Source: a virus | Reading direction: 5' to 3' (one strand) | Length of the DNA: 10,862 nucleotides | UHGV virus genome: UHGV-1695878 | In this document: in pieces, positions 1,012 to 10,719 of the stretch | How the letters are laid out: each line of letters starts with the position of its first letter | Position numbering within the stretch: the stretch's first letter is position 1 | Position numbers and translations under genes: made by a program | The notes under the pieces: model-generated | What the model was told of the DNA's origin: nothing | Database searches by the model: none | The model's input: only the letters and a program-made list of their open reading frames with translations

Positions 1012-2691
1012 ATGAAAACTAAACTGTATTCGTATATTCGCTTCTCGTCTATGCGTCAGAGTGATGGTTCGAGTTATGAACGACAAATCAGGATGGCGAG
1101 AGAGATTGCGGCAAAGTATGACTTAGAACTGGTAAATGATTATCAGGATCTGGGTGTATCTGCGTTTAAAGGTGCTAACTCTAAAACAGGGGCGCTATCT
1201 CGTTTCCTTGATGCAATAGGTAGATCCGTTCCTGTTGGTAGCTGGCTATTCATCGAAAACTTGGACCGTTTATCCCGTGCCGATATTGTCAGTGCGCAGG
1301 AGTTATTCCTTTCAATCATCCGTAGGGGGATAACCATTGTTACTGGCATGGATAACAAGATCTACTCGCTTGATACTGTTACCGCTAACCCGATGGACCT
1401 GATGTTCTCCATCCTTTTATTCATCCGTGGTAATGAGGAAAGCCAGACTAAGCGCAATCGTACTAACTCAAGCGCACTGATTAAGATTAAAGCCCATCAA
1501 GAAAATCCCCAGAATCCGGCAGTGGCAATCGAGGAAGTTGGAAAGAATATGTGGTGGACGGATACCACTTCCGGTTATGTGCTGCCTCATCCTACATACT
1601 TCCCTGTTGTTCAGGAGATTGTGGAATTACGGAAGAATGGACGTTCAACCGCCGAAATACTGGATCACCTTAACGAGACATATGCACCACCACCAGCAGT
1701 AAGCAACAAGAAGCATTCAAAATGGTCACGGGCAATGGTTGAAAGGTTGTTTCATACCCGCGCTTTGATTGGTATCAAGGAAATATCTGTAGATGGCGTT
1801 AACTATGAGTTAAAGGATTATTACCCTCGTGTTATTGATGACCCTACGTTCTATCACCTTAAGAAAAATATTGGTGCTAGAGCATGGAACTTTGGAGACA
1901 AGGAAGAAGTTAAACCGATCCCCCTGCTTAGTGGTATTGGCCTATTGAAATGTGATCATTGCGGTTGCGCTATGGTTAAAGTGAAGGGAACGAACAAACG
2001 TTCTGACCAGTATCGTTATACATGTGATGCGACCCGTTCACGTAGACTTGATTGCGAGCATCCAAACTGGAGTTTTCGAGGTGATCAATTAGAGAAAGCT
2101 GTATTGCAATTGCTGGCTGATAAAATCTGGATTGCTGAGGACAAGGCTAATCCGGTTCCGGCGTTGAAAGTACAGGTTGATGAAATATCACGCAAGATTG
2201 ATAACCTGATTGCCCTTTCTGCTATGACAGGAGCAACGAAGGAGCTAGCCGATCAGATTACTACCCTCAATAGCGAGCGTGAAACACTCTACAATCAGAT
2301 CAAGATGGCAGAAGAGGAAATGTATTCTGTTGACTCTCAAGGCTGGGAGAAGCTCGCAGAATTTGATTTAGAAGATGTTTACAACGAGGAACGACTAAAG
2401 GTCCGGTTTAAGATTAAGCAAGCTCTAAAGCGGATCGGGTGTAGCAGGATTGACAGGAATAAAAACTTGTTTGTACTGGAATACATCGATGGAAAGACCC
2501 AGAGAGTTGTAATAGAAAATTCAAGAGGAACGAGGAAAGGACAAATCTTTGTCGATTTGAAAACTATCAATGATAGGCAGATTCTGGAGAGTAACGGGCT
2601 TGTTTTGCATCCATGTTTAGACATGCTGACAGATAAGAACTGGAAACCAGAAGAGGAAATACCAGGTCCATTACAGGAATTTGGAATTTAA
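1012..2691 (+). CDS. large serine recombinase (phage integrase type), 559 aa
   Basis: ORF track starts at TTG 997 (MFGNGM..); I prefer the first ATG at 1012, giving MKTKLYSYIRFSSMRQ. N-terminal resolvase-type catalytic domain (Y-x-R-F-S-S..Q with presumptive catalytic Ser; ENLDRLSR), central recombinase domain, Cys-rich zinc ribbon (CDHCGC...YTCDATRSRRLDCEHP) and C-terminal coiled-coil region: the architecture of large serine recombinases. Confidence 0.9.
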   Translation: MKTKLYSYIRFSSMRQSDGSSYERQIRMAREIAAKYDLELVNDYQDLGVSAFKGANSKTGALSRFLDAIGRSVPVGSWLFIENLDRLSRADIVSAQELFLSIIRRGITIVTGMDNKIYSLDTVTANPMDLMFSILLFIRGNEESQTKRNRTNSSALIKIKAHQENPQNPAVAIEEVGKNMWWTDTTSGYVLPHPTYFPVVQEIVELRKNGRSTAEILDHLNETYAPPPAVSNKKHSKWSRAMVERLFHTRALIGIKEISVDGVNYELKDYYPRVIDDPTFYHLKKNIGARAWNFGDKEEVKPIPLLSGIGLLKCDHCGCAMVKVKGTNKRSDQYRYTCDATRSRRLDCEHPNWSFRGDQLEKAVLQLLADKIWIAEDKANPVPALKVQVDEISRKIDNLIALSAMTGATKELADQITTLNSERETLYNQIKMAEEEMYSVDSQGWEKLAEFDLEDVYNEERLKVRFKIKQALKRIGCSRIDRNKNLFVLEYIDGKTQRVVIENSRGTRKGQIFVDLKTINDRQILESNGLVLHPCLDMLTDKNWKPEEEIPGPLQEFGI

Positions 2692-2727
2692 GCGGCCTAA
2701 ATCGACGTATAACGAGCTAAAACAGTT

Positions 2728-2757
2728 AAGGGGTACAGATGTACCCCTTTTTAATTT
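2728..2757. terminator. bidirectional rho-independent terminator between convergent genes
   Basis: Perfect palindrome AAGGGGTAC-agat-GTACCCCTT followed by TTTAATTT; lies between the recombinase stop (2691) and the stop of the minus-strand gene (2765). Confidence 0.6.
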
Positions 2758-2764
2758 AATTGCG

Positions 2765-3940
2765 TTAGGCAGCATCTAAGAGAGTATTAAAGTATTCATC
2801 CATTAAATCAGGACTGTCGTCATCAATACAGAAAAATTCCGGTTTATTGATGCCGTAGAAGTGAGTATGTAGCTTGAATGTATCGTCATCAAATACATCT
2901 TTCGGGGATACCCACATATTAGCCTCGTCCGGTTGATTGGTTAGGTAGTCATAAACCAGTTGCTGTAAGTGTGGTAACTCATCAATAGTCAGAGTTTCCG
3001 ACCATCCATCCTTGAAATCTTTGTAGGGTGCTGCATGAGTCTTGAAGCGTTGTTTTACTTCATGCTCTAAATCAACGGCTTTCCAACCATCCTCAAACTC
3101 ATGAGTAAAGATTAAGCGGTGAGTGAAGTTGCTCTTTCTGGTTTGCTCTCTCATTCGTTCTTCTGGTTTTCGGGTAGTGATTCCAAATTTAATAAATTTG
3201 TCATCTAATAATTGAATGTAGAAACTAGCCTTACCCTGATAAGTCCGGTTAGACAGTTGCACCAGTTGGTCTTTAATGCAAAGCGGACAAGTGAAAGAAT
3301 CAGCACATCTTAAATGAGATTCCCATTCGTGGTTATGTGACTTGCAATAGGTTTTAAATTTAACATCCTTTAGGTGTGGGGTGTTTATGGTAAATCCTTT
3401 GAAGATGTAAGGTGTAGTCTCGCAACGTGCATTGATGATTGTCTCTTTGTCCTTAATAACTTCATCAAAAGTCTTGCCACTTCTTACCCGTTGGGATTTT
3501 TCAGCCATACAGATTTTGCAATCAAAATCGAAATCATCTTTGAGAGCATGTAATAGAGATGGCGTCATGATTTGATTGTGTTCAGGGCACAAAACACGGG
3601 CTTTCGTTCTATTTCGCCCTTTCCATTCTCCTTGCCATCCGAGGAATTTCTTTCCCTTCTCATTACAACGAGATTCCATTTTCAACCATACAGCCTTTTC
3701 AGTCTGGAGTAACTCACCCCCGTTAGTATCTTCCAGTTTGCGTAATTTGTAGTCCTTATATTCTTGTGTGTCTAAATTGTAGATTCGAAAGTAAGTGTGA
3801 TTACCCTTCCACGGTAGGATAAATCCACCAAATACGAAAGCAGGTTCCAGTTTAGCGATGATTCGTTGTTGGTACTCTTCCGGCGATAAACCGCGAGTTT
3901 TCTTAACAAAAGGAATTTCGGCAGCGTAAGCAAGTTTCAT
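2765..3940 (-). CDS. Cys-rich protein with T5orf172 (GIY-YIG-like) domain, 391 aa
   Basis: ORF track start at 4051 is TTG; the first ATG at 3940 has a strong SD (AGAGGAAActactATG), giving MKLAYAAEIPF... Cys clusters (CPEH...CKIC; CKSH...CADSFTCPLC) and a T5orf172-type core FYIQLLDDKFIKFGITTRKPEERMREQ. Family assignment from motif recognition only. Confidence 0.7.
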   Translation of the reverse strand: MKLAYAAEIPFVKKTRGLSPEEYQQRIIAKLEPAFVFGGFILPWKGNHTYFRIYNLDTQEYKDYKLRKLEDTNGGELLQTEKAVWLKMESRCNEKGKKFLGWQGEWKGRNRTKARVLCPEHNQIMTPSLLHALKDDFDFDCKICMAEKSQRVRSGKTFDEVIKDKETIINARCETTPYIFKGFTINTPHLKDVKFKTYCKSHNHEWESHLRCADSFTCPLCIKDQLVQLSNRTYQGKASFYIQLLDDKFIKFGITTRKPEERMREQTRKSNFTHRLIFTHEFEDGWKAVDLEHEVKQRFKTHAAPYKDFKDGWSETLTIDELPHLQQLVYDYLTNQPDEANMWVSPKDVFDDDTFKLHTHFYGINKPEFFCIDDDSPDLMDEYFNTLLDAA

Positions 3941-3999
3941 AGTAGTTTCCTCTAAAATAATAAGCTCACTACTATTTATTAGAGAAAATTGTCTTGCTA

Positions 4000-4027
4000 T
4001 TGCATTCTCTATCTGAATGTGTATAAT
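4000..4027 (+). promoter_or_regulatory. sigma70-type promoter for the 189-aa/uvsW operon
   Basis: TTGCAT (4000..4005), 16-nt spacer, TATAAT (4022..4027); oriented toward ATG 4095, leaving a leader of about 60 nt with SD AAGTGAGGT. Confidence 0.45.
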
Positions 4028-4094
4028 ATGCGACCCTAAATCCCAAACCAACCATATTGAGGTTATGCCTATAAGTTAAAAAAGTGAGGTCTAT

Positions 4095-4664
4095 ATGATT
4101 CCAGTAATGGCTAAAGATATTGTTTTTACTCCTAAATCCTCCCGTGCTGCAACTCCATCGGCATTAGAACAACGCATTCTGACTCACATCAAAGAGAAGG
4201 ACTTACCGTTAGTCTTTCATGGCTTTCTGGGTGAGTTTAAAGGGCTTCATTCAAGAATTGCTCTTACATGTACCCGATGCGGTAATAGAGCCGACAAATC
4301 AGCTACTAACCTGCTTAATGAAGGTAAACGATGTGTTTGCTTCAATAGTGACTACTTTCAATATAAAGCGGGTGTGCCTTATCTCTATGTAATGAAGTCT
4401 GGGGATATTGGTAAATTTGGTGTTACAAAGTCAATCATCAAGCGACGTGTTAATCTGGGTGTACGCAATCCCGGTCATAACTTTGATATTGTCTTTGCTC
4501 GTGAAATGCCATCAATGAAACATGCTTTAGCCACTGAAAGAGCAATAAAGAGATTACTGGATGTGGGTATAGGCGGGATTGAATACGGCAAAACTGAAAC
4601 ATTCCACTACTGCAATAAATCACTAAACAATATAAAGAATATTGCAAGTGTGGAGTGGAACTAA
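4095..4664 (+). CDS. small zinc-ribbon + T5orf172 (GIY-YIG-like) domain protein, 189 aa
   Basis: ATG 4095 with SD GTGAGGT; Cys cluster CTRCGN...CVCF; then YLYVMKSGDIGKFGVTKSIIKRRVNLG...ATERAIKRLL, a T5orf172/GIY-YIG-like motif. Stop TAA 4662..4664 overlaps the uvsW ATG (TAATG), implying translational coupling. Confidence 0.7.
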   Translation: MIPVMAKDIVFTPKSSRAATPSALEQRILTHIKEKDLPLVFHGFLGEFKGLHSRIALTCTRCGNRADKSATNLLNEGKRCVCFNSDYFQYKAGVPYLYVMKSGDIGKFGVTKSIIKRRVNLGVRNPGHNFDIVFAREMPSMKHALATERAIKRLLDVGIGGIEYGKTETFHYCNKSLNNIKNIASVEWN

Positions 4665-6154
4665 TGCAAGATATTAAAATTCATTTTCAAGATTACAGTT
4701 TCGTTAAGGTTGATTGCTCTCCTTCCATCGGAATGGAATTAAGAGATTATTTCTCGTTTGAGGTTGAAGGGGCTAAGTTTAGCCCCCGTTACAAGTATTC
4801 CGGCTGGGATGGACGAATAAGACTGTTTACGCATGAAAATACCCTACCAATTGGACTATTAAAAACATTGGGTGTCTTCGTTAAAAATATGGGCTATTCA
4901 GTCTGGATTGACCCGCGATTGCTTGAGAAGGAAGATGTAACCAAAGACGCGATTAATGAATGGATTGATTCCTTAGAAGTGTATTCCGGTTCCAATAAAA
5001 TCAATCCTTACTGGTATCAGCGTGAAGCAGTCTTTCAGGGTATCCATAATCGCCGGAGAATGTTAGTTCTTCCTACCAGTGCGGGTAAGTCATTGATTGC
5101 TTGTATGCTGTCTCGTTGGTACTTAGAGCATTACACCGGAAAGGTGTTAATCATTGTCCCGACTACATCGCTAGTGGTTCAAATGAGGGATGATTTTATC
5201 GATTATCGGTTATTCCCTTATGAAGCAATTCATACAATGATGAGTGGTAGCGGGAAACATCCGGGAGAAAGGCTAATCACTGTTTCAACATGGCAATCAG
5301 CTTGCAAGATGCCCCCTGAATGGTTCAAACAATATGGAATGTTGATAGTTGATGAATCGCATAAGGCTAGTGCCAAAAATATTACCAATATCATTAACGG
5401 AATGAATCATTGCCAATTTAAGATCGGCATGACTGGTTCCCCGAAAGAATCAAAGTGCCATTTAATGCAGTATGTCGGGCTTTTCGGTGATATTTCTAAG
5501 ATCGTGAGTATTGACCGCCTGATGGAAGAAGGGCAGGTGACAAAACTGAAAATTAACTGTCTTTTCCTTCGTTATACCGATGAGGAATGTAGCGCGGTTA
5601 AGGGGAGAGAATATGCGGAAGAGATCAAGTATATTACATCTAACCCACGACGTAATAAGTTTGCTTGCAATTTGGCGCTAAAACTCGCTAAGAAGGGCGA
5701 AAACGTATTCCTGATGTTCCGCAATACTAAGCACGGAAAACTTATGTATGACGCGTTACAGAAGGTACACGACAAGGTTTATTATATTGACGGTGGAGTT
5801 AAGACAGAAGAACGTGATGAATTTAAGAAAATGGCGGAGGGTGACACCGGGATCATTTGTGTTGCGTCTTATGGTGTGTTCTCTACTGGTGTTTCAATTA
5901 AGAATTTGCACCATGTTATTTTCGGTCATCCAGTGAAGGAATCAACTATCGTTCGTCAGAGTATCGGTCGTGCATTGCGTAAACATGGTTCTAAGGATAT
6001 TGCAACGGTCTGGGATCTTATAGATAGCCTATGCATAATCGGTCGTAACGGAAAAGTCAAGCGCAAAAATTACGCGGTAAAACATGCACTTGATAGAATC
6101 CGCTATTATGTGACCGACAAATTCGACTATACAACTAAAACAATTGCTATATAA
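4664..6154 (+). CDS. uvsW: UvsW-type SF2 DNA helicase (T-even phage-like), 496 aa
   Basis: Start taken as ATG 4664 (ORF track begins at GTG 4655); GGAG 8 nt upstream. N-terminus MQDIKIHFQDYSFVKVDC plus SF2 motifs LPTSAGKS (Walker A), IIVPTT, DESH, MTGSP and QSIGRALRK. Colinear over its whole length with phage T4 UvsW as I recall it (MDIKVHF..., about 500 aa). Confidence 0.9.
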   Translation: MQDIKIHFQDYSFVKVDCSPSIGMELRDYFSFEVEGAKFSPRYKYSGWDGRIRLFTHENTLPIGLLKTLGVFVKNMGYSVWIDPRLLEKEDVTKDAINEWIDSLEVYSGSNKINPYWYQREAVFQGIHNRRRMLVLPTSAGKSLIACMLSRWYLEHYTGKVLIIVPTTSLVVQMRDDFIDYRLFPYEAIHTMMSGSGKHPGERLITVSTWQSACKMPPEWFKQYGMLIVDESHKASAKNITNIINGMNHCQFKIGMTGSPKESKCHLMQYVGLFGDISKIVSIDRLMEEGQVTKLKINCLFLRYTDEECSAVKGREYAEEIKYITSNPRRNKFACNLALKLAKKGENVFLMFRNTKHGKLMYDALQKVHDKVYYIDGGVKTEERDEFKKMAEGDTGIICVASYGVFSTGVSIKNLHHVIFGHPVKESTIVRQSIGRALRKHGSKDIATVWDLIDSLCIIGRNGKVKRKNYAVKHALDRIRYYVTDKFDYTTKTIAI

Positions 6155-6188
6155 CAAAAAAAGCGCCTCTAGTGGGCGCTTTAATTTT
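6155..6188. terminator. bidirectional rho-independent terminator between convergent genes
   Basis: AAAAAA-AGCGCC-tctagtg-GGCGCT-TTAATTTT between the uvsW stop (6154) and the stop of the minus-strand peptidase gene (6187). Confidence 0.6.
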
Positions 6189-6540
6189 ATCCATTCCATC
6201 TAGCCTTATAACCACGGCTATCAATGTGCGTAAAGGTTTTGTATTTGCCTAAACCATACTGATCGGGATATCTGCTATCGAGATAAGAGTGAACGATATC
6301 AGGAGAGACACCTTTCACTACAATATCAGCAGCCTTGCCCGTGATATGAATCGAACGAGAAGCGCCACCAACTTTCTTATTGTGTGCCGGACAACGGTTA
6401 GCACTGTTAATAACTACTGGTTTCCCGAAGTGTTCGCGTACATCCTCAAGAATTGCCAGTAATTCAGCGTCTACTGTATCCTGTCCGCACTTCCCACATT
6501 TGCATTCAAATTCTTTACGTTTGAAGTAACGAGAGATCAT
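6187..6540 (-). CDS. M15-family zinc peptidase (small phage-type cell-wall peptidase), 117 aa
   Basis: N-terminal FKRKEFECKCGKCG motif and zinc-ligand pattern H-x6-D ... H-x-D (SIHITGKAAD ... THID), typical of small phage Peptidase_M15 proteins; SD AGGGGGTAAT; no signal peptide. Confidence 0.75.
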   Translation of the reverse strand: MISRYFKRKEFECKCGKCGQDTVDAELLAILEDVREHFGKPVVINSANRCPAHNKKVGGASRSIHITGKAADIVVKGVSPDIVHSYLDSRYPDQYGLGKYKTFTHIDSRGYKARWNG

Positions 6541-8190: not shown

Positions 8191-10719
8191 TTAAGAAATA
8201 GAAATGCCAGTTGAGGCTTTCTTAGTTACAAGCACAGTCAAATCACTGATATATCCAATTGGGTTATAGTTGTTAACACCATCGCAAGAAACTTCAAACG
8301 TTAGCGTTACCGCCCCCTGTCCGGCTGGCATATCAATTACCCCACTGTACATACACCCACTGGTAGCGGTGCGGTCATATAGAACAGAGCCATTTTTCTT
8401 AACGATCAAACGGCATGTATCCCAAAGATCGTTATGTTCATAGCTGCGCATTGACCCATTGTGATGGATAGCTGGAATAATGATTTGTCGGTTAAATTTA
8501 TGGTCATCTTCAATACGCACTGTCAAAGTGCCGTTAGGCCAGTTGGCGTTTTTGTGCGGGAATCGCTTACCAACCGCTTTCACGAAGTCACCCCTAACCT
8601 GAGTAGCATCAAGCATACCCTTAATATCACAGCTAGAGTTAATCGTGACGTTGTTCAGAGTACCAGAATCAGCGGTAATATTTCCCCTGATCGTTGCGTT
8701 CATGAACGTAGCAGAGCCATTCTTGTTAATATGCCATCCGGTAGATCCGTTCCAGTTGGAAGACTGGATATAGTTACCGATTTTAGCATTATCAATTGCA
8801 CCATTTACAATCTTGGCATTGGTGATCGCGCCGTCCTGAATCTTCGCAGTATTGATCGCAGCATTGCCGATTTTAGCATTAGTGATAGCCGCATCATTAA
8901 TCTGGGCTGTCCCAATCGAGGCATTACGGATCATTGACCAGTCCATGTACACCTTGTTCCCTTCGACACCGAACGGAACAACACCCGCCGCGCCATCCTG
9001 CGGAGCTACCGCCAGTTTATCAGCCGTAAAGATGATTCTGGTTGGTTTAGCCGGATCATTGGTTGCGCTCATGTGAATACCAGCCACACGACCATCTGCA
9101 TTAACAGAAAGGTTGTATTTGCTGTTAATCGTCCCTGTCAGCTTATCGATCTTCGCTTCCGCTTCCTGGTTAACACCAGCGATCTTACCGTCCATTTCTA
9201 CCCGAACTTGTTCGATCTTAGTCGCGCTCGCTTGTTCGCTGGTAGCGATTACCTTTTTCAAATCGGTAACGGCTGCATCAACTTTCTTAGTAACGGTTCC
9301 GTTAGTTTCCGTTGTGATAGTCTTATGAAGTCGATCTAATTTGATGTCGGCATTCTCGCCAGCTTGAGCGATAGCATCAGCGATAGTTTCATCTAAGCGG
9401 TCTTGCAATCCGATCAAGTCCTCTAATGCTTCTTTGTCCTGATCGTCCCAGGTAATCGTAGATTTCATTTTCATGAAATACGGTTCAGACCAGACAGCAT
9501 CATCAGTACCGAAAATATCGTAGTGTGCCGCACGAAGATAATAATCACCGTCCGCAATATCAAAGGATGTATGACTAACGCTATTCGTGCTTACTGCCCG
9601 TGCATTAGAAAAATCCTGATTAGTTGCATACTGGATGATTGTACCCGCGTAATCTGACTCTAAAACATCACCATTCCAACTAACGAAAGCGGAGTTAAAG
9701 CCACCACGAGCGTTAAAACCTTTGATTGGTTTATGTTGTGGGTTAATCGCCACTAAACGCGCTGGGGCGCTCTGTGAGTTGTTATAGCCCCTAGCTGATA
9801 CTTCTACCGTCAATTCACGGGAAAGGCCGTTAAACTGGTTCATATCGAGCGTATAAGTCCATGATTCAGGATCGCGGGTACGGTACTGAATAGACTTACC
9901 AGCTTTGTTAGTGATCTTGATAATGTACGCATCAAACAAATCACTGAATTTATTCGTTTCGCCATTCACGACTACATCTAGTTTTTGCTGGTTTTCCCAT
10001 GCAATAGTAAGGTCATTACCTTTGAAGTAGTTCGGCTGGCTGCCAACGTTTTTGATTCGAATAACTGGAGTCGGTAACTCATAGGTAACAGTTGGATTCT
10101 GGTTAATCAGTTCCACCCAATCGGATCGCGCAATAATACCGAAAGCACATACACGATAATCATAAGACCTATCGCTTGCCAGTGCATTGATATTAAAAAT
10201 TTGCTGCGACGTCTGACCAGCTTTAATCCAGTTAGGTGATCCACTCACGCGGTAATCTACCTGGAAGCCATAACGGTTGAAATCTTCCGGTGCATCCCAT
10301 GTTAACGAGATATTTTTACCGTGGATAGTCTCGCCAGTTGCCTTAATTCTAAAGTTAGTCGGCGCTTGTACTGTCATTGAGTCCGGCAGTCCGGTCGGGC
10401 GATCATCTGGGTTTGCTGCATAGTTCAGATCGGTATAAATCTTGGAATTGTATTCCGTGGCGGTGATTGCCAGCATACCAGCGATACCAGAATCAATAGA
10501 ACGTTCAATCGCAGTAATACGCCAAAGGGAATTACTTAATTTTAATTCATCATGCGTAACGCTGATAACGTCCCAGACTTCGGCGGTGAATGCGTCGGTA
10601 GTCATGAAGCTGATAACCTGCGTTATACGTGATTTGTTGCGCTCTATGCTCGCCAGTTTATCAATCTGGGCTTTATCCTTAACAAAGCGATATTCTACGT
10701 CTTTAGCGATGATTCGCCC
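8191..10719 (-). pseudogene. lambda J-like host-specificity (central tail fibre) gene, 5'-truncated by IS1 insertion
   Basis: Frame open from 10734 down to stop at 8191..8193. The C-terminal ~170 aa align by eye with the lambda J receptor-binding domain ([16 protein letters not shown] vs lambda DMPAGRGNVILTFTLTS; [10 protein letters not shown] vs KKQALGISVV; [15 protein letters not shown] vs SNVTIAENCTINGTL); fibronectin-III-like repeats lie upstream. Only 842 codons are present against about 1130 for lambda J. The frame runs into the IS1 inverted repeat at 10720 and terminates inside it (TAA, complement of 10735..10737). The ATG at 10605 used by the ORF track is internal. Confidence 0.8.
8780..8929. 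repeat. five imperfect 30-bp tandem repeats inside the J-like gene
   Basis: Consecutive 30-nt units (gattttagcattatcaattgc.. / aatcttggcattggtgatcgc.. / aatcttcgcagtattgatcgc.. / gattttagcattagtgatagc.. / aatctgggctgtcccaatcga..) encoding 10-aa repeats of the form A-I-x-N-A-K-I-x-N-x. Confidence 0.6.

Follow-up and report, generated by a model that had tools for sequence, protein, structure and literature searches.

Homing-endonuclease-type genes beside a T4-like uvsW helicase gene in a temperate prophage of Escherichia coli and Salmonella

Why would a temperate prophage carry a helicase gene of T4-like phages, and what could two nuclease-type genes be doing next to it? The question is raised by virus genome UHGV-1695878, a stretch of 10,862 nucleotides (nt), referred to here as the window, that covers one end of a temperate prophage; in E. 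coli and Salmonella this prophage is integrated in ycdX. Within the window a big nuclease-type gene, a small nuclease-type gene and a uvsW-type gene together make up what looks like a cassette of approximately 3.4 kb of T4-like (Krischvirus-lineage) origin, organized as a self-contained transcription unit in an accessory slot between the integrase and lysis genes. With moderate confidence, we favor the explanation that the cassette comprises a pair of homing endonucleases of T4-like origin and a resistant uvsW allele, and that the nucleases cut incoming Krischvirus DNA, resulting in homing, interference, or both. The observations behind this explanation are the architecture and fold of the two proteins, the conservation of their residues, purifying selection, the position of the genes by uvsW, the presence of relatives at both borders of that gene in phages, patches of phage sequence within uvsW, and the modular presence and absence of the cassette's parts.

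Two divergent genes with the build of phage homing endonucleases

The big and small genes (Table 1) encode proteins of 391 and 189 amino acids (aa), respectively. An initial annotation of the window had quoted a peptide from each, and both open reading frames (ORFs) and both peptides exist; in the 391-aa protein, aa 240-266 read FYIQLLDDKFIKFGITTRKPEERMREQ, and in the 189-aa protein, aa 96-122 read YLYVMKSGDIGKFGVTKSIIKRRVNLG. The two genes had also been described as facing each other, which we read as convergent; they are in fact divergent, their 5′ ends adjoining across a 154-bp spacer (positions 3941-4094). The big gene likely starts at the ATG at 3940, which is served by a GAGGA ribosome-binding site, and the mechanically called ORF runs further, to a TTG at 4051. 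The start of the small protein (M-I-P-V-M-A) is kept throughout its family. At the other end of the gene, its stop codon and the ATG of uvsW at 4664 overlap (TAATG, 4662-4666).

Searches against Pfam with single sequences (gathering cut-offs of 24.2 bits for CapR, 22.3 for MUG113 and 20 for T5orf172) placed the CapR domain (PF21817) above its cut-off in both proteins (38.9 and 25.0 bits) and MUG113 (PF13455) above its cut-off in the big protein (26.7 bits). Both proteins also match the 'endonuclease' family PHROG 681 (1.4e-42 and 2.9e-19). At the level of the families, CapR is matched by every member of both, T5orf172 (PF10544) by 9 of 11 members of the small family (best 1.9e-5) and GIY-YIG (PF01541) by 5 of those 11; the orthologue from EC24 scores 21.1 bits for T5orf172, over the cut-off. 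The alpha/beta fold of GIY-YIG proteins is present, and the GIY-YIG-type residues of both cores, including the catalytic-type Tyr, Lys-x-Gly, Arg and Glu (the initial annotation had proposed scoring the conservation of Arg and Glu), are invariant across the respective families. Judged from motif order, these residues probably correspond to the catalytic positions of I-TevI. The original assignment of both proteins to the T5orf172/GIY-YIG type is thus borne out by MUG113, PHROG 681, the family-level Pfam matches and the conserved catalytic-type residues.

Cysteine clusters had been reported ahead of the two cores, and these are real. The small protein has a single CapR-type domain (aa 1-93) with the arrangement C59-x2-C62...C80-x-C82, which is the CxxC...CxC pattern published for CapR (PMC10448857), while in the big protein a first module devoid of Cys is followed by two C/H...C-x2-C modules. 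The Cys and His residues concerned are invariant in both families, and in our prediction they bind the zinc of CapR-type DNA-binding fingers. The N-terminal ~70 aa are common to the two proteins (hhalign probability 96%, E 4.9e-9). As to the alignment of the two cores, which had been proposed at the outset, hhalign of the small against the big family reported the N-terminal match alone and no match between the cores; the homology of the cores therefore rests on the Pfam and PHROG families they have in common and on their fold. Each gene is a stand-alone ORF made up of CapR zinc-finger modules plus a core, and each is intergenic relative to the integrase gene and uvsW.

The two families of homologues comprise only 16 and 9 clusters at 90% identity, with members exclusively from E. 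coli, Shigella and Salmonella. That the genes are intact in hundreds of assemblies is indicated by clusters of 123, 334 and 591 member sequences. The ratio of nonsynonymous to synonymous substitution rates (dN/dS) is 0.1-0.35 for both nuclease genes and 0.06-0.2 for uvsW (0.1-0.25 for the diverged borders of uvsW that we describe below), and synonymous sites are saturated between distant variants of the nuclease genes. The DNA-binding modules diverge faster than the core, modules 2 and 3 being 23% and the core 62% identical in comparison with homologue P0025; the CapR-like zinc modules are the quickest-diverging parts of the big family. Fast modules beside a conserved core are, as far as sequence comparison can tell, the pattern of nucleases that would be kept active while their specificity shifts.

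The same combination is known from the T5orf172 homing endonucleases of phage ICP1, which likewise join repeated CapR CxxC...CxC zinc-finger modules to a T5orf172 core; in the ICP1, CapR and Odn systems, too, modules are shuffled, and the genes lie at boundaries of genetic exchange and take part in the conflicts of mobile elements with one another (PMC10448857, PMC8096241). T5orf172 homing endonucleases with CapR domains mark such boundaries and have been co-opted in conflicts between phages and satellites (PMC10448857). We note that the ICP1-PLE conflict takes place in Vibrio between a satellite and a lytic phage, whereas the carrier here is temperate and the linked gene is a T4-type helicase gene; moreover, CapR (of PLE) lacks a nuclease core and Odn (of ICP1) uses a RepA_N domain. 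CapR is a 15.5 kDa protein that equals only the N-terminal domain of the homing endonucleases (PMC8096241). We rejected a CapR-type, DNA-binding-only identity for the window proteins since both retain a complete core. The GIY-YIG/T5orf172 defence proteins PD-T4-3 and PD-Lambda-1 differ in being single-gene systems with other N-terminal domains and architecture, unlinked to a phage-derived target gene, and gave no significant profile match from the window nucleases. In addition, neither nuclease matches PADLOC-DB 2.0, in which UvsW has generic superfamily 2 (SF2) matches only (PbeA, HamB and a type IV restriction enzyme, at 1e-12 or weaker), NCBIfam returned nothing for either nuclease, and a profile search of the sequences of solved structures with the big family gave no match. 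We consider the two proteins putative new members of the CapR-plus-T5orf172 class of homing endonucleases described for ICP1 and other phages. The novelty lies in the arrangement, namely that a temperate prophage combines a homing-endonuclease-type pair with a T4-like helicase gene that virulent phages have recurrently converted; we found no account in the literature of a prophage-borne uvsW or of this cassette.

A uvsW gene that exchanges sequence with Krischvirus phages

The uvsW product matches UvsW_N (PF21241, 118.5 bits) as well as ResIII and Helicase_C, and its motifs PTSAGKS, DExH, TGSP and QSIGRxLR are invariant. At the protein level it is 80-82% identical to the UvsW proteins of the Krischvirus phages Phi1 and G5211, an identity by which the gene is assigned to the Krischvirus lineage. 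At the nucleotide level this similarity is uneven. A central patch, with sharp junctions on both sides, is nearly identical to Krischvirus (Table 1), while identity is 65-75% over the 5′ 800 nt and ~50-65% over the last 130 nt. Alleles without the patch (L005 and L016; L numbers denote related prophage loci) are 60-77% identical to Krischvirus throughout, and the window, L001 and L014 do not have the same best-matching Krischvirus donor. The absence of the patch from some alleles and the strain-specific donors together argue for several independent conversions in the direction from contemporary Krischvirus phages to the prophage. In T4-type recombination, double-strand breaks are known to be coupled to whatever homologous DNA is present in the cell (PMC3016281).

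Prophages of the L005 type (L005 10103-11124, L006-L009 and L016 6953-7120) have an extra T4-like block in Krischvirus gene order, in which uvsW is followed downstream by a diverged uvsY and a junction between the 3′ part of gp51 and the 5′ part of gp27 is present twice in tandem. Phi1 is the nearest match of one copy of the junction (96-100%) and JK32 that of the second (98.6%), so that the locus resembles an archive in which T4-like fragments are stored in the gene order of the phage. Among uvsW homologues (P0034-P0042), several, for example that of Proteus phage PM2, contain Hint/intein domains, which indicates that uvsW has recurrently been targeted by more than one class of selfish element.

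The sites flanking uvsW are of particular interest. In T4, segE occupies the inh/uvsW junction and has uvsW as its target (PMC2988022, Table 1), as the initial annotation had noted, and the seg-like position that it gave to the 189-aa gene is exactly this inh/uvsW site, which is also that of the SegE-like genes of Krischvirus. The Krischvirus phages G5211, AV108 and PTE-Eco09 have a GIY-YIG homing endonuclease gene of the SegE family where the small gene sits in the window. These genes and T4 segE resemble the small gene in being free-standing genes of the GIY-YIG superfamily that abut uvsW upstream in the same orientation; in the phages that carry them the linked 5′ haplotype of uvsW is diverged, as it is in the prophage, and the haplotype closest to that of the prophage is that of G5211, AV108 and PTE-Eco09 (74%, compared to ~70% in phages without the insert). 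The small protein differs from SegE in belonging to the T5orf172 branch, in having a CapR zinc finger and in residing in a temperate prophage rather than a T4-like genome. We rejected membership of the SegE family for it, as neither window protein matches PF19835 (SegE_GIY-YIG), a profile that the G5211 ORF at the same site matches with 32.6 bits against a cut-off of 25. The suggestion that the 189-aa protein may be a homing-type or targeting nuclease is supported in part, namely as regards the T5orf172/GIY-YIG type and the segE position; the protein belongs to another branch of the GIY-YIG superfamily than SegE.

The other border of uvsW is occupied in a comparable way. The closest phage relative of the big protein is a 361-aa, unannotated ORF of the Krischvirus phages Whisky (QZI94019) and JK32 (QEG05484), which lies between uvsW and uvsW.1 (30% identity, E 1e-35, residues 1-338). 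Like the 391-aa protein it combines an N-terminal module with a core and flanks uvsW; unlike the big gene it follows uvsW on the same strand, in a lytic phage, and it is uncharacterized. Compared with Phi1, which has no insert, Whisky has the final ~60 nt of uvsW recoded, whereas the preceding 1,560 nt are 98% identical. With inserts upstream in some Krischvirus phages and downstream in others, both borders of uvsW are sites of homing endonuclease genes, and the prophage holds one relative for each positional class. The uvsW allele linked to the nuclease genes is itself most diverged in its 5′ 800 nt and 3′ 130 nt, at low dN/dS, and the same divergence at the borders is seen in Krischvirus alleles linked to a homing endonuclease gene. 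We place the putative target of the nucleases at these diverged borders.

An exchangeable cargo slot between integrase and endolysin genes

Positions 1-136 of the window are a truncated host ycdX beside the csg (curli) operon and represent one attachment junction of the prophage; related prophages with serine integrases 75-97% identical are inserted in hicB or codB instead (L002, L029). The cassette lies between two terminator-like hairpins (Table 1), and prophages with wholly different cargo are 90-99% identical up to ~2768-2779 and again from ~6148-6152. Of 5,426 complete E. coli genomes, about 12-14 have the full cassette in this slot. In strain PD23 the slot is empty, in FXCREC043 and GN4741 it holds a gene for a 332-aa big-like protein, alone or with other small ORFs, and in ES2, CFSAN061761 and UTAK-14 it holds uvsW alone. 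The uvsW-only alleles have two microhomology deletions (at GGCAGC and CTGnATGTG), each of which excised one nuclease ORF and left its ends behind. These alleles are therefore secondary rather than naive target sites, and they hint that loss of the nucleases is tolerated or favored.

The order of the three genes, with the big gene on the minus strand and the small gene and uvsW on the plus strand, recurs in prophages of E. coli and Salmonella with integrases 75-97% identical. Beside an integrase that is 97% identical, the big protein can have as little as 28% and the small protein 46% aa identity, with UvsW at 84%; by these figures the nuclease genes are apparently swapped wholesale between prophages. 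The spacer between the two nuclease genes is kept across prophage variants whose nuclease genes differ strongly, and it contains a sigma-70-like promoter that faces the small gene and uvsW. A conserved mini-ORF of four codons lies in the leader of the small gene; in the Salmonella variant L010 it reads MPIR followed by a stop. This leader does not fold significantly as RNA (z = 0.32), and scans of the window with Rfam and for tRNAs found no match. A candidate T4 late promoter in the spacer was dropped because it matches at only 7 of 8 positions and is not conserved.

Table 1. Coordinates of features in and around the cassette (window positions unless a locus is named)
Feature	Position	Strand	Description
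Large serine recombinase gene	1012-2691		
Left hairpin	2728-2749		bidirectional, terminator-like; between integrase and big gene; left edge of cargo
Big nuclease-type gene	2765-3940	-	391 aa; T5orf172/MUG113 (GIY-YIG superfamily); three N-terminal DNA-binding modules and a disordered acidic tail; stop codon 2765-2767
Predicted catalytic core, big protein	2933-3244	-	aa 233-336; invariant Y241, K251-F-G253, R262, E292, G312, E315-T316
Two CapR-like zinc modules, big protein	3245-3700	-	aa 81-155 (C118/H121/C141/C144) and aa 156-232 (C199/H202/C218/C221)
N-terminal module, big protein	3731-3940	-	aa 1-70; homologous to N-terminus of small protein
Intergenic control region	3941-4094		divergent spacer
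Sigma-70-like promoter	4000-4005 and 4022-4027	+	TTGCAT, 16-nt spacer, TATAAT
Mini-ORF	4065-4079		ATG CCT ATA AGT TAA, own GAGG
Small nuclease-type gene	4095-4664	+	189 aa; one CapR-type zinc-finger DNA-binding domain and T5orf172/GIY-YIG core; directly upstream of uvsW
Predicted catalytic core, small protein	4374-4607	+	aa 94-171; invariant Y96, Y98, G106-K107-x-G109, R117, E148, T167-E168-T169-F170
uvsW-type SF2 helicase gene	4664-6154	+	496 aa, intact; UvsW_N domain; motifs I, II, III and VI invariant
Gene-conversion patch in uvsW	5462-6025	+	columns 801-1364; ~98% identical to Krischvirus Phi1/Whisky; 10-11 mismatches in ~565 nt
Diverged 3′ end of uvsW	6026-6154	+	protein sequence largely kept; equivalent last ~60 nt recoded in Krischvirus Whisky
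Right hairpin	6160-6182		bidirectional, terminator-like; between uvsW and endolysin gene; right edge of cargo
M15 endolysin gene	6187-6540		
Small lysis-region ORFs and J-like tail-tip protein gene			beyond endolysin gene
Microhomology deletions	L014 3493-3768; L015 4831-5107		equivalent to window 2773/3917 and 4021/4557; uvsW intact

Outside the cassette, an 81-aa ORF upstream of the integrase gene (701-946) has a signal-peptide-like N-terminus (MKKIIAGVVLALGLVGAANA) and no family match, and its product may be a secreted moron product. Other ORFs found in the slot include two (L028 5071-5517, 148 aa, and L030 4581-5069, 162 aa) with weak PADLOC matches to the C-terminal part of HamB of Hachiman (E 3e-4 to 5e-3). 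The C-terminal part of the J-like tail-tip protein (8191-10605) includes a series of short repeats; no other part of the window is as similar (95-99%) to many other E. coli prophages.

What the cassette might do

How might such a cassette work? On the explanation we favor, the nucleases would be site-specific endonucleases built like free-standing phage homing endonucleases. They would be produced from the conserved divergent promoter region and would recognize and cut uvsW-border sequences in incoming Krischvirus-type genomes that lack these genes. The resident uvsW, with its diverged 5′ part and 3′ end, would serve as the cleavage-resistant 'home' allele and as a source of homology, such that broken phage DNA might be repaired from the prophage copy, leading to homing or marker conversion at a cost to the superinfecting phage. 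Recombination in the reverse direction would then have repeatedly overwritten the center of the prophage uvsW. Nuclease activity, the identity of the target, expression in the lysogen and an effect on phage growth are what we infer here. A bolder version, to which we give a rather low probability, is that the prophage carries a weaponized piece of a T4-like genome, in which the nucleases would cut superinfecting Krischvirus-type phages at the uvsW borders and a resistant, active UvsW, expressed before the late programme of the invader, would also unwind the invader's origin R-loops. If that were true, the cassette would constitute a sequence-specific, recombination-updated prophage immunity against a family of virulent phages, and the Krischvirus patches would be the scars of encounters that were survived.

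Several observations weigh against cutting of Krischvirus DNA by a nuclease pair of T4-like origin. T5orf172 itself, a profile named in the initial annotation, scores below its cut-off for each window protein alone (16.2 and 15.6 bits against 20), although the matches to PHROG 681 and those at family level close this gap. None of the T4-like phages sampled contains a relative of the small family, for which the nearest relatives in phages are T5-like endonucleases (~26% identity), and scans of IMG/VR and metagenomes for this family returned only the same prophage. A blastn search (distant mode) with positions 2700-4700 against 50,697 phage records gave no match and hence no phage relative of the nuclease genes at the DNA level. 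The DNA-binding modules of the big protein and the Whisky ORF are only 23-36% identical, so that a common target for these two proteins should not be assumed. No lytic phage with the prophage-type 5′ haplotype of uvsW or with these nuclease genes was found in the collections searched, which leaves homing into phages unobserved; a protein search with the N-terminal half of UvsW returned mostly fragments and no phage near the prophage haplotype, and a scan of GTDB species-representative genomes found no relatives of uvsW. G+C content was dropped as a sign of T4-like origin because that of the cassette (0.40) resembles that of its flanks (0.39-0.45). The patches in uvsW could come from co-infection of an induced prophage with no role for a nuclease. 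Finally, the nucleases and uvsW occur apart in some prophages. In EC24 the slot contains a big-like gene and a 193-aa small-family gene (hhalign 1.1e-34 and 1.6e-41) and no uvsW, and uvsW is thus not needed for maintenance of the nucleases.

A possible though rather improbable alternative is that the nucleases are selfish homing endonucleases of temperate phages that cut the empty integrase-endolysin junction, and that uvsW is separately selected cargo, either as a RecG-like repair or R-loop helicase or as an anti-T4 effector that unwinds origin R-loops early; its adjacency to the nuclease genes would then be an accident of one capture. This would fit the polymorphism of the slot between flanks that are 90-99% identical, with PD23 empty, FXCREC043 and GN4741 holding the big-like gene only and EC24 lacking uvsW. 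It would also fit the intactness of uvsW, which has all helicase motifs and a dN/dS of ~0.1 even where both nuclease ORFs have been deleted, and the nature of UvsW as a late T4 protein that unwinds origin R-loops (PMC3016281). What it leaves unexplained is why the small gene lies exactly at the segE position with a T4-style overlap of stop and start codons, why the best phage relative of the big protein flanks the uvsW of Krischvirus phages, and why the divergence of uvsW is strongest at the edges nearest those sites. The seemingly 'empty' uvsW-only alleles do not help it, being deletion derivatives.

We think it unlikely that the three genes form a nuclease-helicase defence system like Hachiman, Gabija or Nhi, in which a domesticated UvsW would sense branched or R-loop intermediates in the replication of invading phages and the nucleases would destroy the DNA. 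Such a system would account for the moron-like location with its own promoter and terminators, the translational coupling of the small gene to uvsW, and an architecture kept in both E. coli and Salmonella with purifying selection on all three genes and hypervariable nuclease genes. However, the lack of a PADLOC match for the nucleases and the generic level of that for the helicase speak against it, and the existence of prophages with the nucleases only (EC24) and with uvsW only (ES2, CFSAN061761) argues against an obligate nuclease-helicase machine. In addition, uvsW freely swaps sequence with the uvsW of phages, so it has not become functionally specialized away from them, and sequence-specific zinc-finger modules point to recognition of sites and not to sensing of structures.

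It is more doubtful still that the two proteins are domesticated, non-cleaving regulators of cassette or invader genes, in the manner of CapR or of I-TevI acting as a repressor. CapR domains are sequence-specific DNA-binding zinc fingers and the CapR repressor is itself derived from T5orf172 homing endonucleases (PMC8096241, PMC10448857); furthermore, the conserved N-terminal ~70 aa common to both proteins could bind operators located in the conserved intergenic region. The variable DNA-binding modules, however, do not co-vary with that conserved region, and the full core, with invariant catalytic-type residues under purifying selection, sets the window proteins apart in architecture from CapR-like repressors, which have the DNA-binding part only. 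Least probable is that the cassette is decaying debris, without present function, of a single illegitimate recombination between a T4-like and a temperate phage, since for all the fragments (the uvsY remnant and the gp51 and gp27 pieces) and deletions in sister prophages and the cassette's presence in only ~14 of 5,426 complete E. coli genomes, the three ORFs are intact in hundreds of assemblies and across variants with saturated synonymous sites (dN/dS 0.06-0.35), and the promoter region is conserved.

It is already known that homing endonucleases drive exchange among related lytic phages and that T5orf172/CapR proteins take part in the ICP1-PLE conflict. What would be new here is a homing-endonuclease-type pair lodged inside a temperate prophage alongside its presumed target gene, of which the prophage has a copy derived from a virulent T4-like lineage, and direct sequence evidence that the locus continues to recombine with contemporary Krischvirus genomes. 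The cassette also provides a natural test of whether untimely expression of UvsW harms T4-like replication. A prophage uvsW that stands beside genes for homing-type nucleases, and that has repeatedly traded DNA with T4-like phages during infection, hints at traffic in genes, or at a conflict, in which one virus is dormant and the other lytic. Should the nucleases cleave Krischvirus DNA, the cassette would offer a tractable E. coli system for cross-lifestyle homing from prophage to lytic phage, and a model both for homing endonucleases as prophage-encoded weapons against superinfection and for prophages that sample and archive the DNA of the virulent phages attacking their hosts.

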